NCBI GenBank assembly: GCA_964392445.1
Contig: CAYMPD010000020.1
Location: 1-19,203, forward strand
Reading direction: 5' to 3'
DNA from: an uncultured archaeon
GTDB lineage: Archaea > Aenigmatarchaeota > Aenigmatarchaeia > CG10238-14
DNA: 19,203 bases
Made by a program: the position numbers and the translations under genes. Positions 3,730-18,898 of this stretch are shown one piece after another (positions within the stretch are counted from its first letter, which is position 1; each line of letters starts with the position of its first letter). The notes under the pieces were generated by a model that saw only the letters and a program-made list of their open reading frames with translations, was not told the DNA's origin and made no database searches.

Positions 3730-4209
3730 TCACTTCTTCACATAAACCAAAAACGAGTATCCATCCCTATCATCTCTCTTAATCAACTCCCATTTATCAG
3801 GATTAATTTCTGGGAATTTAGCATCGCCCTTCGGCTTTCTATGAACCCGAGTAATATCTAACTTATCAGAGAAAGGTAAAGCTTGCTTGTAAACTGACGC
3901 TCCACCTCCGATAAAAATTTTCTCATAATCTTTTTTCTTACAGTAGTCTATCGCATCTTTTAATGACCCTTTTACCACAGTTCCTCCTTCAGGTTTGTAA
4001 TCTTCCCTTCTTGTAAGAACTATGTTTTCCCTTCCTTTCAACGGTTTTGTCGGCAAGGATTCATAAGTTTTTCTACCCATAATCACCGGATAACCTTCCG
4101 TCTCTTCCCTGAAATGTTTAAGATCCTCAGGAATGTACCAAGGAATATCATTCTCTTTACCAATAACATTATTCTCAGCTACTGCTGCGATGATAATTGT
4201 TTGGGTCAT
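3730..4209 (-). CDS. folA: Dihydrofolate reductase
   Basis: IIAAVAENNVIG, IPWYIPEDLKHF, VIMGRKTYESLP, PLKGRENIVLTR and IGGG motifs. ATGA overlap with thyA. Confidence 0.97.
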   Translation of the reverse strand: MTQTIIIAAVAENNVIGKENDIPWYIPEDLKHFREETEGYPVIMGRKTYESLPTKPLKGRENIVLTRREDYKPEGGTVVKGSLKDAIDYCKKKDYEKIFIGGGASVYKQALPFSDKLDITRVHRKPKGDAKFPEINPDKWELIKRDDRDGYSFLVYVKK

Positions 4210-5072
4210 ACGGCTATCTCAAATTTTATTCTTGGATGATGTTTGTAATTAATAACTTCTGAATCTGTATACTTCCAATCAAAGATAGAGGTGAAATTCT
4301 CTGTTTTGATCTTAGGTAATGGATAAGGTTTTCTTTTTAACTGTTCTTTTAGTCCGTCCACATGATTGAGATAAATATGAGTATCTCCTAGAAATCCTAC
4401 TAATTTGCCTTCTTTGGATCCCGTCTCTTTGGCGAGTAGATGTAATAGTAAACCATAACTGGCTATGTTGAAGGGTAATCCCAAAGCTGTGTCAACAGAT
4501 CTTTGACTCCATAACAAATTTAATCTATCATTCATAACTGTGACTTGAAAACTGTAGTGGCAAGGTGGTAAAGCCATGCTCGGGATATCAACTGGATTCC
4601 AAGAATTAACAATCATCCTCCTATCAGTAGGATTTTGTTTTAAGGTTTTGATAACATTCTTGAGTTGATCTACTCCTTTTCCTTTTGGTTTTTCATCATA
4701 GGATTGATATTCTGCACCAAAATTTCTCCATTGAAAACCGTAAATAGGACCTAATTCTCTTTCTTCCATCATTTTTTTCTGAGTTTCTTTGTCATGGGAA
4801 TAAGGAACTATATCACGCGAACACCATTCATCCCAGATGTGGTTGTTTCTTTCCTGGAGCCATTTCTTATCGGTTAGTCCTTTGATAAAGAATTCCAATT
4901 CGGATGCTACTAGTCTTAAAGGGACGGATTTGGTTGTAAGAAGTGGAAAACCATCTTTCATGTCATGCTTGAACATAACTCCCATAAGAGCAATAGTACC
5001 TGTACCTGTTCTGTCTCCTTTTTTAGAACCTTCTTCCAGTATTTTTTTGACTATATCTAGGTAAGGTTTCAT
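4206..5072 (-). CDS. thyA: Thymidylate synthase (ThyA)
   Basis: DRTGTGT, FPLLTTK, IWDEW, LGPIYGFQWR, catalytic MALPPCH, QRSVD..LGLPFNIASY and GDTHIY motifs. Confidence 0.98.
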   Translation of the reverse strand: MKPYLDIVKKILEEGSKKGDRTGTGTIALMGVMFKHDMKDGFPLLTTKSVPLRLVASELEFFIKGLTDKKWLQERNNHIWDEWCSRDIVPYSHDKETQKKMMEERELGPIYGFQWRNFGAEYQSYDEKPKGKGVDQLKNVIKTLKQNPTDRRMIVNSWNPVDIPSMALPPCHYSFQVTVMNDRLNLLWSQRSVDTALGLPFNIASYGLLLHLLAKETGSKEGKLVGFLGDTHIYLNHVDGLKEQLKRKPYPLPKIKTENFTSIFDWKYTDSEVINYKHHPRIKFEIAV

Positions 5073-5112
5073 CTAGTAATACCCTTAGTTAGTATTGTTT
5101 TTGAGAAATAAA

Positions 5113-5322
5113 TTAGTTTAGTGCTGCCTTTTCTCTTAATCTAAGCTGCCTTAAAACAGATGCTACCCTAACTGTTCTTTTCCACAAAGGAGAGGAAGAT
5201 TCCGGTGAATCTCTTATGCATACTGATAAAGCATTAGGAAAATCTCCATATCTTGAGCAATAAGTTCTATGTCCATCTCTTCCTTCCTTATATTGCGAAC
5301 ACCCTTCACATCTATCGTACAT
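5113..5322 (-). CDS. Small Cys-containing hypothetical protein
   Basis: 69 aa with four Cys (CEGC...C...C), co-oriented between glyA and thyA. Confidence 0.55.
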   Translation of the reverse strand: MYDRCEGCSQYKEGRDGHRTYCSRYGDFPNALSVCIRDSPESSSPLWKRTVRVASVLRQLRLREKAALN

Positions 5323-5361
5323 ATTCTATTAAAGGTTCATTAAACTCAAATACTTAACCCT

Positions 5362-6618
5362 CTATCGCCCATACAAAGGAAATTCCTCACACAAATCAGC
5401 AACTCGTCCCTTAAGATGTTTTAGTATCTTCTTATCTTTCTCATTTTTAACAAAAGCAGTAATTATTTTACCGATTTCTCTCATCTGAGGTTCTCTCATC
5501 CCCCGAGTGGTAACTGCAGGAGTACCTATTCTAACACCACTAGTCACCCAAGGAGGTTCAGGATCAAACGGTATAGCGTTCTTGTTCAAAGTAATACCAA
5601 TCTCTTCAAAAGCTACTTGAGCGTGTTTTCCCGTCATTTCTTTGTCTTGTAAATCTACCAACATAAGATGATTATCTGTTCCTCCAGACACTAATCGGAA
5701 ATTATTATCAATTAATTCTTTTGCTAATGTTTCTGCGTTTTTTACGATTTGTTGCTGATATTTTTTGAATTCCGGTCTCATTGCCTCTTTGAATGCTACT
5801 GCTTTTGCTGCGATTGTGTTCATTAATGGCCCGCCTTGTGTTCCTGGGAAGATGGATTTATCGATTTTTTTCGCATATTCTTCTTTGCACATTATCACTC
5901 CGCCTCTCGGACCCCGCAGAGTTTTCTGAGTAGTTGTAGTTACAAAATCAACATGAGGAAATGGTTCTGGATGTTCACCCGCGACTATTAACCCGGCTAT
6001 GTGGGCCACATCCGCTAACAAATAAGCATTAACTTTGTTCGCGATATAAGCAAACTCCTCGAAATCAACTGTTCTTGGATAAGCACTTGCACCACATATG
6101 ATCATATCTGGTTTAACTTCTTTGGCTATCTTCATGACTTCATCATAATCAATCTTCTCGGTGGTTTTATTAACCCCGTAAAAAGAAACAGTGTAATTCC
6201 GTCCAGAAAAATTAACCGGACTACCGTGTGAAAGATGACCACCATGCGATAAGTCCATCGAAAGAATTTTGTCACCAACATCAAGCATCGCGAAGTAGAC
6301 AGCAAAGTTGGCCTGAGTACCTGAGTGTGGTTGGACGTTTGCATGATCGGCTTTAAACAGTTTTTTCACTCTTTCCCTTGCCAAATTCTCGACTTCATCG
6401 TAGTATTTACAGCCACCATAATACCTCTTACCCGGATAACCTTCGGCATATTTATTTGTCATAACACTTGCTTGTGCTTGCATTACTGCAGAGCTGGCGA
6501 AGTTTTCTGAGGCGATTAGTTCGATTGTGTTTTCTTGACGTTTGATTTCATTTTTGATTGTTTTTGCAACTCGAGGATCTTTTTTTTCAACTTGTTCCAA
6601 TTTCTTGAACCATTTCAT
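5362..6618 (-). CDS. glyA: Serine hydroxymethyltransferase (bacterial-type)
   Basis: [52 protein letters not shown] (PLP lysine), FPGTQGGP and [14 protein letters not shown] motifs. Confidence 0.98.
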
Positions 6619-12769: not shown

Positions 12770-12805
12770 AGAATAGTTTTGGTTGGTAGGTTTTTAAATG
12801 TCTTT
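12770..12805 (-). repeat. 36-bp direct repeat copy 1, containing the TATA-like promoter of the metallophosphoesterase gene
   Basis: 34 of 36 bases identical to 13248-13283. On the minus strand it reads AAAGACATTTAAAAACC..., with the TATA-like box about 33-40 nt upstream of the ATG at 12758. Confidence 0.85.
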
Positions 12806-12821
12806 GTTTTGTTCAAAAAAA

Positions 12822-13145
12822 TTAATCTATGTGAGCTTCAGCTCTATATTGTGAAATAGATTCCTGTAAATATCCCCTTAAATCATGTTCTCTGAATCCT
12901 GAGTAAATCTCATTAAAACAACCTAAAAGACAATCAAGTACTTCATCTACTCCTTTTCTTTCAACGCCACCATCTAATTTACAGTATATATTTCTTTTAT
13001 CAGCAACAAGATTAGTCACAAAAAGCATTCGATTTACTCGAGATAATCTCCATCCCTCTCCTCCAAGAAAAAAATTTGCTTCTTCTTCGTAATGTCTCCC
13101 GTTCTCTGTACTTCCTCTAACTCTTCCACCGAAATCCAATGTCAT
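12822..13145 (-). CDS. Hypothetical protein between the direct repeats
   Basis: 107-aa ORF with no recognised motif. Confidence 0.65.
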   Translation of the reverse strand: MTLDFGGRVRGSTENGRHYEEEANFFLGGEGWRLSRVNRMLFVTNLVADKRNIYCKLDGGVERKGVDEVLDCLLGCFNEIYSGFREHDLRGYLQESISQYRAEAHID

Positions 13146-13247: not shown

Positions 13248-13283
13248 AGAATAATTTTGGTTGGTAGATTTTTAAATGTCTTT
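13248..13283 (-). repeat. 36-bp direct repeat copy 2
   Basis: agaataattttggttggtagatttttaaatgtcttt versus agaatagttttggttggtaggtttttaaatgtcttt at 12770. Confidence 0.85.
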
Positions 13284-13316
13284 ATTTCTTCAAACACGAG
13301 TAAAGCCTAATTTACC

Positions 13317-14078
13317 TTAGGACAAAAGGTCTTCAATCATGATGGGAAATGGTTTATAGGGTTGTTTGGCCCAATTAAGCCTCCCCCGTATTTCCTTCTC
13401 ATAATCCTGTGGGGATCCAGGTAAACTCGAAACTAATAGAGGATAAGCTTCATTAACCATTCTAGTAAATAAGAATCCATCAGCAACATTCATTAGTTTA
13501 ACAGAATCTCTAGTTATTTCACCCTCTTTTAGATCCTCTCCAATTCTCCTTCCAAATTCATCTAAAAGACGACCAAAATACCTTGCTAAATAATCTTCCA
13601 AGTAAGAAGGGACTCCCCACTCTATTTCTTCAATAGAATGATCAAAACCCCTGAAAGAAAATCTATAACCGGGTGACCGTCCCATTAACTCTTTTGCTAA
13701 AGGTGTTTCTGTTGAAATTCTACCCTGATACCTACTTCCACCATCTATATCACTAGTAGCTGCTATAAGATATCTCTCCATTTCATTTTCAATATCCAAT
13801 AACACAGATGCTCCTATTTCGACTTTTTGTATATTTGGAATCTCCTTCTTGGGTTTTATTACATTTTCATATTTATCTCTCTTAGCTCGTTGTTCTGCAA
13901 CTTTTTGACCAGCTACCATAAAATCTCTTTGTGCTTGTTCGAATGCAAAGTCTTCTTTCCAATCCAGATTCTCATCCGCTGCGTTTCCTATTTCAGCTTG
14001 AGAGAGGGTTCTTTCTCTAAACTTCCGAGCTAAATCAACATCCATTAAAAGATATTCAAAGTATAATATATCAGTCAT
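13317..14078 (-). CDS. GreA/GreB-family transcription elongation factor-like protein with a C-terminal extension
   Basis: EIGNAADENLDWKEDFAFEQAQRD aligns by eye with the GreA coiled-coil tip ([22 protein letters not shown]). The C-domain has VEIGASV and ISTETPLAKELMGRSPG. About 95 extra C-terminal residues follow. Confidence 0.75.
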   Translation of the reverse strand: MTDILYFEYLLMDVDLARKFRERTLSQAEIGNAADENLDWKEDFAFEQAQRDFMVAGQKVAEQRAKRDKYENVIKPKKEIPNIQKVEIGASVLLDIENEMERYLIAATSDIDGGSRYQGRISTETPLAKELMGRSPGYRFSFRGFDHSIEEIEWGVPSYLEDYLARYFGRLLDEFGRRIGEDLKEGEITRDSVKLMNVADGFLFTRMVNEAYPLLVSSLPGSPQDYEKEIRGRLNWAKQPYKPFPIMIEDLLS

Positions 14079-14126
14079 TGCTATCTACCCTTCTTTCAAA
14101 AACCAAAATTTAAATAAATTACAGTT

Positions 14127-14675
14127 TTATTCAGCATTTAAAACCCTTATAAAGTGTAATAATATAGATAGTGTATCTTTAACAGAGAGTTCCTCGTTAT
14201 CCAAAACTAAATCATAAATACTTAAATCGTCTAAATCAAATCCGTATCTCTTTTTCAGCCTCTCTCTAGATCTCTTATTTCTTTCTCTAACATTATTTAA
14301 AGCTACTTCCATAGGTGTTTCAATTCCTTTTAATGAATCTCTATAGACTACTCTACGAGCTGTTTCCTCTTCTGAACACTTAAGCCATATTTTAATAGCT
14401 TCAGGGCAAAGAAAAGCCCCTAAACGACTATCTATGATAACATTTCCTTCTTTATATGCTTTTAAAATCTCTTGATTTACAAAATCATCCACTTCTTCTG
14501 GTGCCCTAGCCACATATCTTATTAGTTCAGAATTAGATTCTTCTGCAATTCTCCTAAAAATTTCACCAGCACAGAAATAATCTAAACCTAATTCACCAGA
14601 AACTAATTTAGACATATAAGATTTTCCTGATCCTGAATATCCAGAAATTGTTACCGGTCTCATATCTTCATTCAT
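14127..14675 (-). CDS. Cytidylate-kinase-like NMP kinase (archaeal Cmk family)
   Basis: VTISGYSGSGKS P-loop, AGEIFRRIAEE, IIDSRLG, IWLKCS..ARRV..RD and RYGFDLDDLSIYDLVLD. The start was placed at the ATG preceded by GGAG; the ORF-track start is 14705. Confidence 0.88.
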   Translation of the reverse strand: MNEDMRPVTISGYSGSGKSYMSKLVSGELGLDYFCAGEIFRRIAEESNSELIRYVARAPEEVDDFVNQEILKAYKEGNVIIDSRLGAFLCPEAIKIWLKCSEEETARRVVYRDSLKGIETPMEVALNNVRERNKRSRERLKKRYGFDLDDLSIYDLVLDNEELSVKDTLSILLHFIRVLNAE

Positions 14676-14751
14676 TTTAAACTCCAATCTGAACCATAAT
14701 AACAAAGGTTAAACATAAATATCTTGCACTACTATGAAATGCTAGTATCCA

Positions 14752-16050
14752 ATGAAAGAAGCTATATTCAGTAGATACCCAATTTTAGAGACTCTTCCAG
14801 AATTAGCTGGCTACAAGACACTTTTTCTCAATTTAGGTGTTGACTGTGATTCAGATCTACAAGAAAGGCTATCTTATTTGTCTGAAATGAAGACGAAGCA
14901 CAGGATTAAGAAGCATAGAGTAAGAGATGGGAAGTTGATAGATGTATCCAAAGATACTTCAATAATCCCAAGCGAAGTAATTTTAGAAAGAGATGGGGAA
15001 AGAACTCTATCAAAAGTATCTTACAGACCAGACTCTCCACTGAAACTCGAAGTATATGATGGAGGGTTACATTTAGTAGATACAGAAACTGATGAAGAAT
15101 TAGAAGTTGGAATTCAACCTGTCCCCAGAAGGAGTTATTCGGACTTAAGAATACCTTCAGGAAGACGAGCACGTGAAGGCACGAAATTGAGTGATTACGT
15201 ACAAATTTTAGGGATGGATAGGATAGGTGTATTAGCATATTCTGGATGCCAACATTGGCTTGAAGGTAAAATGTGTCGTTTTTGTGATGAAAACCCAAAA
15301 AGATCAGGAGAACTGGGTGGTATGCCATCACTTAATACTTTAAGAGATTTCGATAACGACGTAGAGGAATGGTGGATGTACCATGGACCTGCTTATATAG
15401 ATGGAATAGCATATGCTTTTCAGGAATTACTTGAGACTGAAGATATATCACCCCATATTCATCTTCAACTGATGGCAGGTAATTTACAAGACGTTGAGGA
15501 AGAATGGGAGATTTGTACCGAAATAGCAACTACCTTAAATTCAGTGCGAGACTTATCTACTATAGATAGTTATCTAAATATTGTACCCCCGAGAGAGAGT
15601 AGAACACCTTATTTACAAAGGGGTAAATATCTTGGTTTCAGAAATATAGCGTTTAACCTCGAAGTATTCGGGGAAGAAAAATTTGAAGAAGTTTGTCCTG
15701 GAAAAGCAGAGTTATTTGGATACCAAAATATGGTGGATGCACTTAAAGAATCTGTTAGATATTTCGGTCATGGTAAAGTAAGGAGTAATTTCGTGTTGGG
15801 AGCACAACCAGTCCATGAACTTTTAAGAGGTATTAGAGAATTAGCCAAAGATGGTATAGTTTCAGATTATAGTATATTTGTTCCTAAAAGAGGGACCCCT
15901 TGGGCCAACAAGGAAGCTCCAAGTATGGAAACCGTTGTTAGATTCACAAATGAATTAGTAAATGTATACCGAGAACATGGTTTTAAAGGTATTTACTGTG
16001 GATTAAGCAGTAGATCCAATGTACTGCATGAAGTATTAGAGGGATATTAA
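14752..16050 (+). CDS. Radical SAM protein with an atypical CX8CX2C motif
   Basis: GCQHWLEGKMCRFC at 15247-15285. Downstream NLEVF...VCPGK, SNFVLG and IFVPKRGTP resemble the barrel motifs of BioB/LipA-like and MSMEG_0568-like radical SAM enzymes. Confidence 0.85.
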   Translation: MKEAIFSRYPILETLPELAGYKTLFLNLGVDCDSDLQERLSYLSEMKTKHRIKKHRVRDGKLIDVSKDTSIIPSEVILERDGERTLSKVSYRPDSPLKLEVYDGGLHLVDTETDEELEVGIQPVPRRSYSDLRIPSGRRAREGTKLSDYVQILGMDRIGVLAYSGCQHWLEGKMCRFCDENPKRSGELGGMPSLNTLRDFDNDVEEWWMYHGPAYIDGIAYAFQELLETEDISPHIHLQLMAGNLQDVEEEWEICTEIATTLNSVRDLSTIDSYLNIVPPRESRTPYLQRGKYLGFRNIAFNLEVFGEEKFEEVCPGKAELFGYQNMVDALKESVRYFGHGKVRSNFVLGAQPVHELLRGIRELAKDGIVSDYSIFVPKRGTPWANKEAPSMETVVRFTNELVNVYREHGFKGIYCGLSSRSNVLHEVLEGY

Positions 16051-16051
16051 A

Positions 16052-17116
16052 ATGAGGGATATAGTAGAAGATGTTAATAGATTTTCGGGTGGAGAGTTGA
16101 GAGTAAGAAGGGAAAATAGGCACGGAGTAATTGCGTATCACTATCCACATCGAAGAGAAGAACTGGTGTATCCTACAATGGATTTAGGGAAAGTTTTAGA
16201 AAAACATCAAATGGGATGGTTAGTAAAGCCTGGTAGACCAGGTTATCTAGTAAGAGCACCAGAAGATTGGTTAGTAGATATATCTGATCCCTTTAAAGCA
16301 CAAAAAGGATCACGTGATAACTTAGTCCTTTACAGGACTCTTAAAGAACTGAGATCAAATAATGGGATATATGACCTAATTGAAGACGCCAGAAGATTGG
16401 TTGGGGATATTGATGTTTACTTACTAGATGGTCCTTCTTTAGAAACAGAAATGAGGATAGCTGGAAGCGATTCAAGAATAGGTCAAGTTAAAAAAGAGTT
16501 ACTAAGACTCGCCAGAGAAACAGAAGAATGGGAAAAAAACGAAGAAATAACCAGAGAAGAATTACCCGAAACGAGAAAAATGGGTGTTAAAAGATATCCT
16601 TGGTTCTGTTGTTCGGATACTTCAAAAGAGTTCTACGAAAGAATTGAAAAGGTACATAGAGTCATATCTCCTCTATACAAGATTGAAAAAGTGATGAACG
16701 GATTCTGGAATGAAATACCTGATGCAGATGTATACATGTTTGTCCCAAAATCAGGTTTTAAGTTAGCATTAGGATTTGTTGACTACAGAGAAAGTTATGA
16801 TGACGTGATGTTTTGGGAATATCATGCAGGGCAGGCACTAGCTTACGAAGGACAAATGTTTCCCAGACCTTTAGAAGGAAGGAATGTGGCCATAATAGAT
16901 ATATCATATTCAGGTACTACACTTAATGAACTACATAAAAAAGTATCTGATGAAGGTGGGAGACCATCGAGAGTAGCCCTTTTCCCAAAATCAAGAAGAG
17001 CTGTATTATGCTCAGAATATTTTATATTTCTAGACAAGATGAGAGAATCTGATGAGGAAGAATTAGAAGATGATTGGGCAGAAGAATTATACGTTCAGAC
17101 TATGAGAAGAAATTAA
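16052..17116 (+). CDS. Two-domain protein with a C-terminal type-I phosphoribosyltransferase-like domain
   Basis: EGRNVAIIDISYSGTTL resembles the PRPP-binding loop (hhhhDDxxxTGxTL), followed by GGRPSRVALF. It starts 1 nt after the radical SAM stop. Confidence 0.65.
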   Translation: MRDIVEDVNRFSGGELRVRRENRHGVIAYHYPHRREELVYPTMDLGKVLEKHQMGWLVKPGRPGYLVRAPEDWLVDISDPFKAQKGSRDNLVLYRTLKELRSNNGIYDLIEDARRLVGDIDVYLLDGPSLETEMRIAGSDSRIGQVKKELLRLARETEEWEKNEEITREELPETRKMGVKRYPWFCCSDTSKEFYERIEKVHRVISPLYKIEKVMNGFWNEIPDADVYMFVPKSGFKLALGFVDYRESYDDVMFWEYHAGQALAYEGQMFPRPLEGRNVAIIDISYSGTTLNELHKKVSDEGGRPSRVALFPKSRRAVLCSEYFIFLDKMRESDEEELEDDWAEELYVQTMRRN

Positions 17117-17118
17117 AT

Positions 17119-17565
17119 TCAAATGTTTAAAATAATTTTGTTTTCATTCTTCAAATCAATGTTTTCCAGAAATTTTTTACTGTCTAAATCCATTTTTAAT
17201 CCATCTAATTGACTTTTATTAAACAATGATAATTCCACTAAATCACTTCCTTTCTTAAAATTATCGTCCTTAGGTTTCACAAGAAAGTCAAATACTATAT
17301 GGTGATGATTATCATGAAACTGTTCACCTATTCTGAGTAAACTGTATTTTTTCATATCAAGAAAAGTTTCTTCTTTCACTTCTCTTTTAAGTGCAGCTTT
17401 TAATTTTTCTCCTGCTTCAACTTTACCGCCAGGGATCGTCCAATAACCAGGTAAGAAATTTTTATTGGAATCTCTTTTTCCTAAAAGAAATTTACCATTT
17501 ATTACAATAACAGCATTAACAACAGGTATTATCTCTATTTCCATATAACTTAAATAATTATCCAT
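17119..17565 (-). CDS. NUDIX hydrolase (MutT/ADP-ribose pyrophosphatase-like); alternative start at 17544
   Basis: Complete Nudix box WTIPGGKVEAGEKLKAALKREVKEETFL, preceded by FLLGKR. Confidence 0.92.
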   Translation of the reverse strand: MDNYLSYMEIEIIPVVNAVIVINGKFLLGKRDSNKNFLPGYWTIPGGKVEAGEKLKAALKREVKEETFLDMKKYSLLRIGEQFHDNHHHIVFDFLVKPKDDNFKKGSDLVELSLFNKSQLDGLKMDLDSKKFLENIDLKNENKIILNI

Positions 17566-17585
17566 TTATTTAACTTTGTATTAGA

Positions 17586-18485
17586 ATGGAAGAAATAGAT
17601 TTTTTATCCATTGGATACATTTCTAGAACCAAAATAATTAAAGATGGAATGAAAAATGATTATATCGGGGGACCTTCTTTAAATGTGAGTAAAGTTTTAG
17701 CTTCATTAGGATATAAAGTTGGACTAGTATCTCCAGTAGGTCCAGAGATTACAGAAAATGAAATAAGAGAAATCGAAGAACTAAATATAGATACAAAAGG
17801 TATATGGAGAACAGACAGTACTTTTCAAGTTATAATCGACAATGAGAATCCTCCTCCTTTAGTAGTTTCTATTTCAGATCCAATAGTACTTGAAAGAATT
17901 CCAAGAGTTTATACCAGAACTAATAATGTCTACCTAGGACCTGTAATAAACGAATTATCTGCCGAAACTATACTAGAATTATATTCTCTTATACCTCATC
18001 CAAAATTCTTCCTAGATGTACAGGGTTATACTAGAAGATTCCAAGGTAGAATGATGCCTGATAAAGTCCTAAGATGGCCTAACAAAGACAGGATATTGAG
18101 ATATTTAGATGTAGTTAAATTAAATGAACGAGAATTGAATTTAGTAGTGGGGGAAGACTCGGAGAATCCAATGGAAGATTTAGGAGGAGACTTGAAAGAA
18201 AACGGTATTTTGATAGTAACTAGAGGGAGAAAAGGTTCCATTTTATATAAAGATGGAGAAAGAACAGATATTCCTCCTAGAAAATCCAAAGTAATTAGAG
18301 ATGCAACATGCGCTGGAGATTCATATATGGGTTCTTTTCTCAGTGAGTATTGTAGACATGGAGACTATATACAAGCAGGGAATTTCGCATCTGTGTATTC
18401 ATCACATATAGTTGAGAATATAGGCTTAGTTTTACCTAAGAGAGAAGAGATTCTACGTGAATTAAATGGACCAATGGGGATTTGA
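17586..18485 (+). CDS. PfkB/ribokinase-family carbohydrate or nucleoside kinase
   Basis: IGGPSLNVS..LASLG, FFLDVQG, VVKLNEREL, IVTRGRKGS and DATCAGDSY (DxxGAGD variant) motifs. Confidence 0.92.
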   Translation: MEEIDFLSIGYISRTKIIKDGMKNDYIGGPSLNVSKVLASLGYKVGLVSPVGPEITENEIREIEELNIDTKGIWRTDSTFQVIIDNENPPPLVVSISDPIVLERIPRVYTRTNNVYLGPVINELSAETILELYSLIPHPKFFLDVQGYTRRFQGRMMPDKVLRWPNKDRILRYLDVVKLNERELNLVVGEDSENPMEDLGGDLKENGILIVTRGRKGSILYKDGERTDIPPRKSKVIRDATCAGDSYMGSFLSEYCRHGDYIQAGNFASVYSSHIVENIGLVLPKREEILRELNGPMGI

Positions 18486-18540
18486 ACCCCAAGCCTTCTG
18501 GATGCGAACCAGACGATCTACCAGGTTGATCTATTGGCCC
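18467..18540 (-). tRNA. tRNA-Ala (anticodon CGC)
   Basis: Minus-strand cloverleaf GGGCCAA...TTGGTCC-A with a G3:U70 pair, anticodon arm TCTGG-TTCGCAT-CCAGA and T-loop TTCAAAT. No intron and no encoded CCA. Confidence 0.95.
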
Positions 18541-18649
18541 AGACTAGTTAATTATTATAACCACAAAAACTATAAACTATTGCCTTATTTTTAATTGAAA
18601 CTATATTGGGTTATTGTTTTAAGCAAAGAAGTTAAAATAAACTATTGCC

Positions 18650-18898
18650 ATGTCAGATATATGTGTTCACTGCGGTAAATTTGCTACTCATTACAACAAA
18701 GAAGGACAGCCTATCTGCTTAAACTGCTACAAAAATCCACCAAAAAGATACAAATGTAGTAAATGCGGGGACATAATGGTTATCAAAAAAGGTAAGTACG
18801 GTTCATTCTGGGGATGTTCAGGTTATCCTATGTGCGATCATACTGTTTCACTTAAAAGAGCGTTAGAAAAGGAAAAGAGTAAAAGAAATAAGAACTAA
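18650..18898 (+). CDS. Small double Zn-finger protein ending in a topoisomerase-I-type C4 Zn ribbon
   Basis: CVHC...CLNC followed by CSKCGDIMVIKKGKYGSFWGCSGYPMC, the classic topoisomerase C4 ribbon pattern. Confidence 0.85.
   Translation: MSDICVHCGKFATHYNKEGQPICLNCYKNPPKRYKCSKCGDIMVIKKGKYGSFWGCSGYPMCDHTVSLKRALEKEKSKRNKN

Follow-up and report, generated by a model that had tools for sequence, protein, structure and literature searches.

Do the tightly packed genes that lie beside a tRNA-Ala gene in an uncultured aenigmatarchaeon form one pathway, and, if so, what does the pathway act on? The genes are found in a 19,203-nucleotide (nt) stretch of DNA (the window) from a low-GC genome of 1.2 Mb that is 94.9% complete (G000), in which an eRF1/Pelota-type factor and an archaeal-type (d)CMP kinase (cmk) are marks of archaeal origin. 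A first-pass annotation of the window had listed genes for a nucleoside monophosphate (NMP) kinase, an atypical radical S-adenosylmethionine (SAM) enzyme, a phosphoribosyltransferase (PRTase)-like protein, a NUDIX hydrolase and a PfkB kinase, and had proposed that together they make, activate and detoxify a non-canonical nucleotide. As we discuss below, the radical SAM enzyme (P0001) and the PRTase-fold protein encoded next to it (P0002, the partner) are an obligate two-gene core, and this core probably belongs to a nucleotide-modifying module. This module is real and conserved, is not described in the literature searched, and is amenable to experiment. Homologous loci are labeled with L numbers and genomes with G numbers.

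The radical SAM gene (14752-16050, + strand; 432 aa) and the partner gene (16052-17116, +; 354 aa) are separated by 1 nt. Of the 24 non-redundant locus groups from genomes and metagenomes that are informative, 22 have the same arrangement, in which a radical SAM gene is followed by an adjacent and co-directional partner gene. The two exceptions (L046 and L048) have a distant partner subfamily in a cluster resembling those of nonribosomal peptide synthetases. Look-ups that started from radical SAM homologues of 34-50% identity found a P0002 homologue directly downstream in all five cases. The pairwise distances of the two proteins are correlated with r = 0.84, a value reached by none of 2000 permutations, in a statistic that kinship alone inflates. 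Their trees recover the same clades, with the window clade (the window, L031 and L033, then L005) nested among sequences of candidate phyla radiation (CPR) bacteria and DPANN-like archaea. Discordant phylogenies had been named in the first-pass annotation as a result that would speak against a common pathway; the trees of the two core proteins are concordant.

The pair is carried by DPANN-like archaea, CPR bacteria and Clostridia, at a frequency of about 1-2% of genomes per lineage. The partner is present in 2 of 118 genomes of the window's order and in 2 of 5 of its genus; in the class that includes the Berkelbacteria genome, 3 of 162 genomes have a true match to it, as do 2 of 201 in the order of the Clostridia genome. 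It belongs to a rare accessory module, which DPANN-like archaea, CPR bacteria and Clostridia share by horizontal transfer. A phage origin was considered and dropped, since a pattern scan of IMG/VR found no relatives of either core protein. One Saccharibacteria metagenome-assembled genome holds two copies of the whole module, in the same gene order over about 7 kb, on two contigs (L022 and L023), due either to duplication or to two strains binned together. In L046 (7078-11867) and L048, the distant partner subfamily is encoded between a HAD phosphatase, a BtrH_N-like protein and an adenylation-peptidyl carrier protein didomain, with a related radical SAM gene 4.7 kb away. These two loci, from fermentation and gut metagenomes, have the look of natural-product clusters.

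How far does the unit extend beyond the core? Comparison within the genus delimits a block of five genes (13317-17565), which are present or absent together: a Gre-factor-like (GreA/Rnk-like) paralogue (13317-14078, -; 253 aa; PF01272 27.4 bits), a second archaeal-type cmk (cmk2; 14127-14705, -; TIGR02173 106.1 bits, equivalog cut-off 102.1), the radical SAM gene, the partner gene and a NUDIX hydrolase gene (17119-17565, -; 148 aa; PF00293 61.5 bits). The module-less genomes G005, G006 and G007, and G012 of a sister genus, have one archaeal cmk each, and the module-bearing G000 and G008 have two, of which the extra one lies beside the radical SAM gene (the other copy in G000 is on contig C18). 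G006 retains the valyl-tRNA synthetase (ValRS)-Metallophos gene pair, and none of the block follows it. Between the window and L031 of G008, the Gre-like proteins are 46%, the cmk 62%, the radical SAM enzymes 66%, the partners 62% and the NUDIX proteins 59% identical, compared with 78% for ValRS, and the NUDIX orthologue holds the same position at this congeneric locus (L031/L019). The flanks of the L031 block differ from those of the block in the window, with tRNA genes on one side and genes for a major facilitator superfamily (MFS) transporter and AlaXM on the other. The block moves as a unit. Just beyond the Gre-like end of the L031 block are two tRNA genes and a 130-nt tRNA match that probably contains an intron (L031:7033-7162).

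The simplest alternative is that unrelated housekeeping genes came to lie side by side in a compact genome. The strands alternate, the genome is dense and has 16 NUDIX and four PfkB genes, and neither PfkB nor tRNA-Ala recurs at other loci, all of which would fit chance. As an explanation of the whole set, chance is nevertheless extremely unlikely, given the adjacency of the core across two domains of life, the concordant trees, the Rosetta-stone fusions of radical SAM and NUDIX domains, the extra cmk or gmk found only where the module is, and the presence or absence of the whole block within one genus. Chance is refuted for 13317-17565, and stands only for the PfkB gene and tRNA-Ala.

These last two features (the divergent PfkB/ribokinase-family gene at 17586-18485, +, 299 aa, PF00294 83.2 bits; tRNA-Ala(CGC) at 18466-18541, -, called by ARAGORN and Rfam) were part of the first-pass gene set. 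Among the 19 non-redundant loci with gene context, on which all accessory counts below are based, PfkB is found in the window only, and a tRNA gene adjoins the core in two, on opposite sides. The PfkB gene, one of four in its genome, is missing from the four other genomes of the genus, the module-bearing one included, and from the 18 other loci. Both features lie outside the block: PfkB is a neighbor, not shown to be a module member, and tRNA-Ala is a bystander. The gene set is to be redrawn with these two out and the Gre-like gene in. The proposal that a set of nucleotide-related genes recurs thus stands in part, for the core, the NMP kinases and NUDIX, and fails for PfkB and for adjacency to tRNA. 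The last 20 nt of the PfkB open reading frame (ORF; 18466-18485) overlap the tRNA-Ala gene on the opposite strand, so that either the C-terminus assigned to PfkB may be wrong or the two genes may truly overlap.

The coordinates of the six features listed at first, and their spacing, are reproduced by ORF and tRNA calls. The cmk gene is transcribed divergently from the radical SAM gene, and its start is probably the first ATG, at 14675, which leaves a gap of 76 nt; the following gaps are 1 nt, 2 nt (between the convergent partner and NUDIX genes) and 20 or 41 nt. Such close packing is normal for this genome. The strand order from cmk to tRNA-Ala is -, +, +, -, +, -. This alternation, which had not been stressed, rules out a single operon, and a shared transcript is possible only for the radical SAM and partner genes.

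Two ideas on genes near the block were tried and dropped. Integration at tRNA-Ala was rejected on finding no tRNA-derived direct repeat, no GC anomaly and adjacency to tRNA in only 2 of 19 loci. The ValRS gene, which is near the core both here and in Berkelbacteria, was considered as a resistant aminoacyl-tRNA synthetase copy that would protect the cell from a nucleoside inhibiting such synthetases; it is the single ValRS gene of the genome, and is syntenic with Metallophos in module-less relatives. An orphan ORF of 107 aa (12822-13145) lies between Metallophos and the Gre-like gene, and the intergenic regions on either side of it contain a direct repeat of 40 nt (12770-12809 and 13248-13287; identity 93%). 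The repeats are AT-rich and TATA-like on the minus strand, and could have arisen by promoter duplication or represent a scar where the block begins on the left.

What chemistry might the radical SAM enzyme perform? The canonical radical SAM motif is CX3CX2C. P0001 has C166-x8-C175-x2-C178 instead, which is kept in 33-34 of 34 relatives. It matches NF045502 (variant_rSAM) at 167 bits (cut-off 125), and its model (pLDDT 94.9) shows a radical-SAM barrel into which an N-terminal beta domain is inserted. The three-Cys motif, the barrel and the top 30 or more structural matches, all of them radical SAM enzymes, place it in the superfamily. The family assignments made at first for cmk, NUDIX and PfkB likewise hold at TIGR02173, PF00293 and PF00294. 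The sequence of P0001 has no match among PDB sequences. Its best structural match is lipoyl synthase (4u0p_B, Z 17.7 over 251 residues, root-mean-square deviation (rmsd) 3.3; human LIAS, Z 17.0), followed by MqnE (Z 15.3), HydG, BioB and PylB, with queuine lyase (11.1), MoaA (10.5) and QueE (8.9) lower. Viperin (5vsl_A) ranks 17th, with Z 12.0, 208 aligned residues and rmsd 3.4. Residues C315, C416, H235, H237, K318 and R421 and a C-terminal S-S-R-S motif are invariant in the family, or nearly so; the Lys and Arg would suit phosphates, and the substrate is, we infer, a nucleotide. No longer fusion forms of the enzyme (757-2160 aa) were found, which is weak evidence.

The LipA/BioB clade thus contains the nearest structures. 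The module family has extra invariant Cys residues (C315 and C416), and the C-terminal S-S-R-S motif is presumably reminiscent of the C-terminal Ser motif of LipA, which we regard as a lead only. The LipA auxiliary-cluster motif CX4CX5C is absent, with no conserved Cys in the N-terminal 160 residues, and the LipS2 model of NCBIfam gives 16.3 bits against a cut-off of 270. The neighborhood, moreover, is nucleotide-related, unlike that of lipoate or biotin genes. P0001 does not appear to be a member of the viperin, LipA or QueE families. Megaclusters with CX8CX2C, the identical motif, are catalogued as 4-6-x in RadicalSAM.org (PMC9477430); these entries and NF045502 come without an assigned function, partner or gene context.

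The match to MqnE raises the alternative that the enzyme, like MqnE and HpnH, adds the 5'-deoxyadenosyl radical of SAM to a non-nucleotide substrate, and that the surrounding nucleotide enzymes process the SAM-derived adenosyl moiety. In the futalosine pathway MqnB follows MqnE, to which the nucleoside hydrolase gene directly after the core in three loci could be likened. A 5'-C-linked adenosyl group, however, has no 5'-phosphate to offer NMP kinases, CYTH or NUDIX proteins, or a 5-phosphoribosyl-binding loop, and menaquinone and hopanoid genes are missing from the vicinity. We consider radical adenosylation very unlikely.

The partner gives a further indication of the substrate. P0002 has no Pfam or NCBIfam match of its own, PF00156 included, and an ESM Atlas feature search with it returned only weak viral rows annotated as hypothetical. 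In its predicted structure (pLDDT 90.9), the C-terminal half has the core fold of type I PRTases (PF00156). The VIA Z scores are 8.6-7.0 over about the first 20 matches of the structure search, about 35 of the top matches are PRTases or phosphoribosyl pyrophosphate (PRPP) synthetases, and Foldseek and atlas searches give the same fold. A profile search against PDB sequences finds six PRTases at E = 0.005-0.05, and PF00156 itself is matched by 16 of 70 family members (best E 2.7e-5). The initial label of PRTase-like is thus borne out by structural matches up to Z 8.6, by Foldseek, and by PF00156 within the family. The 5-phosphoribosyl-binding loop reads I-I-D-x-S-Y-S-G-x-T-L in the family, with D283 as its Asp; it keeps the part that binds the 5'-phosphate and one of the two acidic residues, the first acidic position being hydrophobic. 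D76, H258 and D283 are invariant across the 70 sequences. The partner would, by this loop, bind a 5-phosphoribosyl group. A prediction of the complex between the core proteins scored 0.00, which counts neither for nor against binding. The partner family is rare and unnamed: an exhaustive profile search of 1.84 billion representatives yields 137 clusters at 50% identity, nearly all of about 340-370 aa, and a word-based search finds 6 relatives of P0002 compared with 89 of the radical SAM enzyme.

The main rival reading of the module is salvage or house-cleaning, by which an unusual, modified or damaged base or nucleoside, taken up, for example, by these small-genome symbionts from host RNA or DNA, would be turned into a usable nucleotide again. 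A hydrolase or an enzyme like nucleoside deoxyribosyltransferase (NDT) would free the base, the radical SAM enzyme would remove or rearrange the modification, the partner would re-attach ribose-5-phosphate, kinases would re-phosphorylate the product, and NUDIX or CYTH proteins would sanitise the pool. The PRTase fold of the partner is consistent with such a scheme, as are the hosts (CPR bacteria, DPANN-like archaea and small-genome Clostridia), a nucleoside hydrolase gene directly after the partner in 3 of 19 loci, an NDT-like gene in 3 of 19 and the LysR regulator that accompanies the Clostridia clusters. Queuine lyase, among the structural matches at Z 11.1, provides a precedent for a radical SAM enzyme in salvage. 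The module is, however, found in only about 1-2% of related genomes that share the same lifestyle, hydrolases occur in a minority of loci, and salvage leaves the Gre-like paralogue and the near-universal CYTH protein unexplained. The efflux transporters encoded alongside, of the MFS type in L031 and the ABC type in L028/L029, point to export and not to import. We regard salvage as rather doubtful.

The accessory genes of the proposed nucleotide-modifying module were only partly captured at first: CYTH and the Gre-like paralogue had been overlooked. A CYTH gene is present in 15 of 19 loci, where it usually comes directly after the partner gene on the same strand; in NCBIfam it is matched best by cyaB, the class IV adenylate cyclase, at 40-49 bits (cut-off 58). 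This match, together with the position after the partner, allows for a signal or cofactor pathway, in which the radical SAM enzyme modifies a nucleoside triphosphate (NTP), CYTH cyclises it (or a small cofactor is made) and NUDIX degrades the signal. In Clostridia, a MoaA-like radical SAM and CYTH pair before the module echoes the logic of MoaA and MoaC. CYTH proteins, however, more commonly act as triphosphatases than as cyclases, the 19 loci have no conserved receptor or effector gene nearby, and the window's lineage keeps the core without any CYTH in the genome. A signal or cofactor pathway is thus unlikely. The Clostridia pair is part of a longer arrangement, in which genes for LysR, the MoaA-like enzyme (which scores 138 bits with archaeal MoaA, short of the cut-off) and another CYTH protein precede the module in the same operon (L009:5264-6735; L028:6242-7719; L008:5376-6853). 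Across 18 loci and the window, a search for riboswitches and other Rfam elements found tRNAs only.

In the window's genome, NUDIX occupies the place equivalent to that of CYTH. NUDIX genes are present in 9 of 19 loci, and in two of these are fused to the radical SAM gene; the fusion proteins of some Clostridia (P0053, P0056 and P0061) are 694-705 aa long, and a split form also occurs. The window protein has an intact R-E-x2-E-E, and the full box (G-x5-E-x7-R-E-U-x-E-E-x-G-U) save for its last Gly, which is Phe. Orthology of the window and fused NUDIX proteins was rejected, since the Nudix box alone is common to them. In this CYTH-less lineage, the NUDIX protein probably trims or cleans up di- or triphosphates for the module. 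The N-terminal domain of the Clostridia NUDIX protein, in its free and fused forms alike (L009:9807-10673; residues ~420-694 of P0053), resembles part of the LeuRS editing domain CP1 (PF13603; leuS_bact 298-363). The 16 NUDIX genes of the host are unusually many for 1.2 Mb, and several are in tandem (C7, C12 and C17).

Kinases recur in more than one form. A cmk and a gmk gene are each found in 3 of 19 loci, with weaker P-loop kinase-like matches in four. The window cmk has an intact P-loop (G-x-x-G-x-G-K-S). The cmk is of the archaeal type in the window and of the bacterial type in L009, and a complete Clostridia chromosome has two gmk genes, one of which adjoins the module. That the accessories are so often non-orthologous speaks for a shared functional need rather than inherited synteny. 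Genes for a His-phosphatase (2 of 19 loci) and for HD proteins (2-3 of 19) complete the set.

The Gre-factor-like paralogue is present in 10 of 19 loci, and within the operon in L011, L026, L035 and L036. The window copy carries a C-terminal extension of about 100 aa. It just passes the Pfam C-terminal domain cut-off (27.4 versus 26.9 bits), and scores 27 with the greA model (cut-off 139). The tip of its coiled coil is D-W-K-E-D in place of the D-L-S-E-N of canonical GreA, and the module-linked copies share D-W-H/K-D/E-N/D, in which both acidic positions are kept. The GreA of the same bacterial genomes has the canonical tip, and the Berkelbacteria and Saccharibacteria genomes have a canonical GreA elsewhere and a divergent copy beside the module. 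In the window's genome the Gre-like gene is the sole GreA-domain gene; five archaeal control genomes have none. Within the taxonomic family it is found only in the module-bearing G000 and G008, adjoining the module in both.

These observations suggest the following mechanism. An NMP kinase, which is cmk in this genome and gmk or another P-loop kinase at other loci, would raise the supply of a nucleoside diphosphate (NDP) or NTP, on which the radical SAM enzyme would perform radical chemistry. The partner would hold the substrate, or build it from a base and PRPP. CYTH elsewhere, or NUDIX here, would trim the tri- or diphosphate of the product or remove its excess, so that the pathway would yield a non-canonical nucleotide or nucleoside. 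A connection of this product with RNA polymerase may be provided by the Gre-like factor. The original reading, that a non-canonical nucleotide is made, activated and detoxified, is thus reasonable and unproven. The five-gene nucleotide-modifying block, this mechanism and a role in conflict, taken together as one account, could equally well be right or wrong.

Two known systems resemble the proposed module. Like viperin (RSAD2) with CMPK2, and like pVips, the module has a radical SAM gene beside a dedicated extra NMP kinase; both have an accessory set that includes kinases, and both span domains while being present in no more than a few percent of genomes. In some viperins, a domain predicted to be a triphosphatase or cyclase is also fused to the enzyme (bioRxiv 10.1101/2023.09.13.557418). 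Unlike viperin, the module enzyme has CX8CX2C rather than CX3CX2C, is structurally closer to LipA (Z 17.7) than to viperin (Z 12.0), depends on a PRTase-fold partner, which viperins do without, and often occurs together with a Gre-like factor. The second system, tubercidin biosynthesis, uses the QueE-type radical SAM enzyme TubB, the PRTase TubE and the Nudix hydrolase TubG (PMC6112128). It is the sole characterised pathway found in which a radical SAM enzyme, a PRPP-dependent PRTase and a tailoring Nudix enzyme give a nucleoside analogue. The module enzyme, however, is not QueE-like (Z 8.9), and the partner is a two-domain protein, far from the TubE type, that has lost one acidic residue of the PRPP loop. 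The deazapurine genes for GTP cyclohydrolase I (FolE), QueD and QueC are absent from the 19 loci, and the hosts are CPR bacteria, DPANN-like archaea and Clostridia, not Streptomyces. The literature searched for radical SAM enzymes with CYTH, Nudix, cmk, PRTase or TTM has no description of the module, in agreement with the first impression that it is not a named system. A new ribonucleotide reductase was also considered, and dropped because the genome has class I/II-type genes; two tandem ORFs like the reductase large subunit (702 and 742 aa) are at G000:C4:67764-71307.

What would a cell gain from a modified nucleotide? By analogy with viperin and CMPK2, the likeliest role is in conflict, as an antiviral or antimicrobial nucleotide analogue, a tentative suggestion that we hold to be somewhat less probable than its contrary. 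It is favored by the patchy distribution, the horizontal sharing, divergence faster than that of ValRS, nearby efflux pumps and some toxin-antitoxin and defence neighbors, and is weakened by LysR-regulated chromosomal contexts and by the PADLOC searches. With the defence models of PADLOC-DB v2, the radical SAM enzyme, the partner and PfkB have no match; the matches of the window cmk to pVip-kinase and VakA, and of NUDIX to the candidate PDC-S07, reflect generic family resemblance. A bolder form of this idea is that the core represents a new class of nucleotide-analogue synthase, unrelated to viperin, in which a LipA/BioB-like CX8CX2C radical SAM enzyme and an obligatory PRTase-fold subunit make a toxic or chain-terminating nucleotide. 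The product would possibly contain sulfur, in view of the two extra invariant Cys, and would serve in antiviral or inter-microbial warfare in DPANN archaea, CPR bacteria and gut Clostridia, while the Gre-like factor protects or targets RNA polymerase. We consider this form doubtful, if credible.

Several points weigh against a nucleotide-modifying module or against its role in conflict. The chemistry proposed for the module is deduced throughout from neighboring genes. In structure, the radical SAM enzyme resembles the synthases of lipoate and biotin, MqnE and HydG more closely than viperin, MoaA and QueE, which act on nucleotides, and viperin models in NCBIfam (E <= 0.01) and PADLOC (pVip) do not match it. 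The kinases vary by lineage (cmk, gmk and others), so that no single base is indicated. With so many NUDIX genes in the host genome, the adjacency of NUDIX could be partly due to chance. In archaea, to our knowledge, no target is known for a Gre factor of the bacterial type. The Clostridia clusters, with their LysR regulator and stable chromosomal context, look metabolic. The defence neighbors are anecdotal: an Avs-like STAND NTPase in L005, AbiEii in L036/L041, and Fic in L011. The pattern scan of IMG/VR viral contigs gave no relative of either core protein. The STAND-type NTPase (L005:11006-17122, -; 2038 aa) directly follows the radical SAM-partner-CYTH operon; it has a weak Cap4-nuclease match and the look of an Avs-type defence protein.

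Two other features of the window lie outside the block. DHFR, ThyA and SHMT genes in a row (3730-6618, -) form a complete cluster for the folate-dependent thymidylate cycle. Between tRNA-Ala and tRNA-Ile(GAT), an 82-aa stand-alone topoisomerase-I-type C4 zinc ribbon is encoded (18650-18898, +).

Nucleotide-acting radical SAM enzymes have yielded antiviral molecules, such as the ddhCTP of viperin, and nucleoside antibiotics. In both domains of life in which the module described here is found, its gene contexts point to nucleotide phosphates throughout. With two to five genes, it is a small, clonable target for the discovery of a new modified nucleotide and of new radical chemistry. It may also assign a function, for the first time, to an archaeal Gre-factor-like protein, and it is an instance of genes being shared by CPR bacteria and DPANN archaea, about whose accessory biology almost nothing is known.

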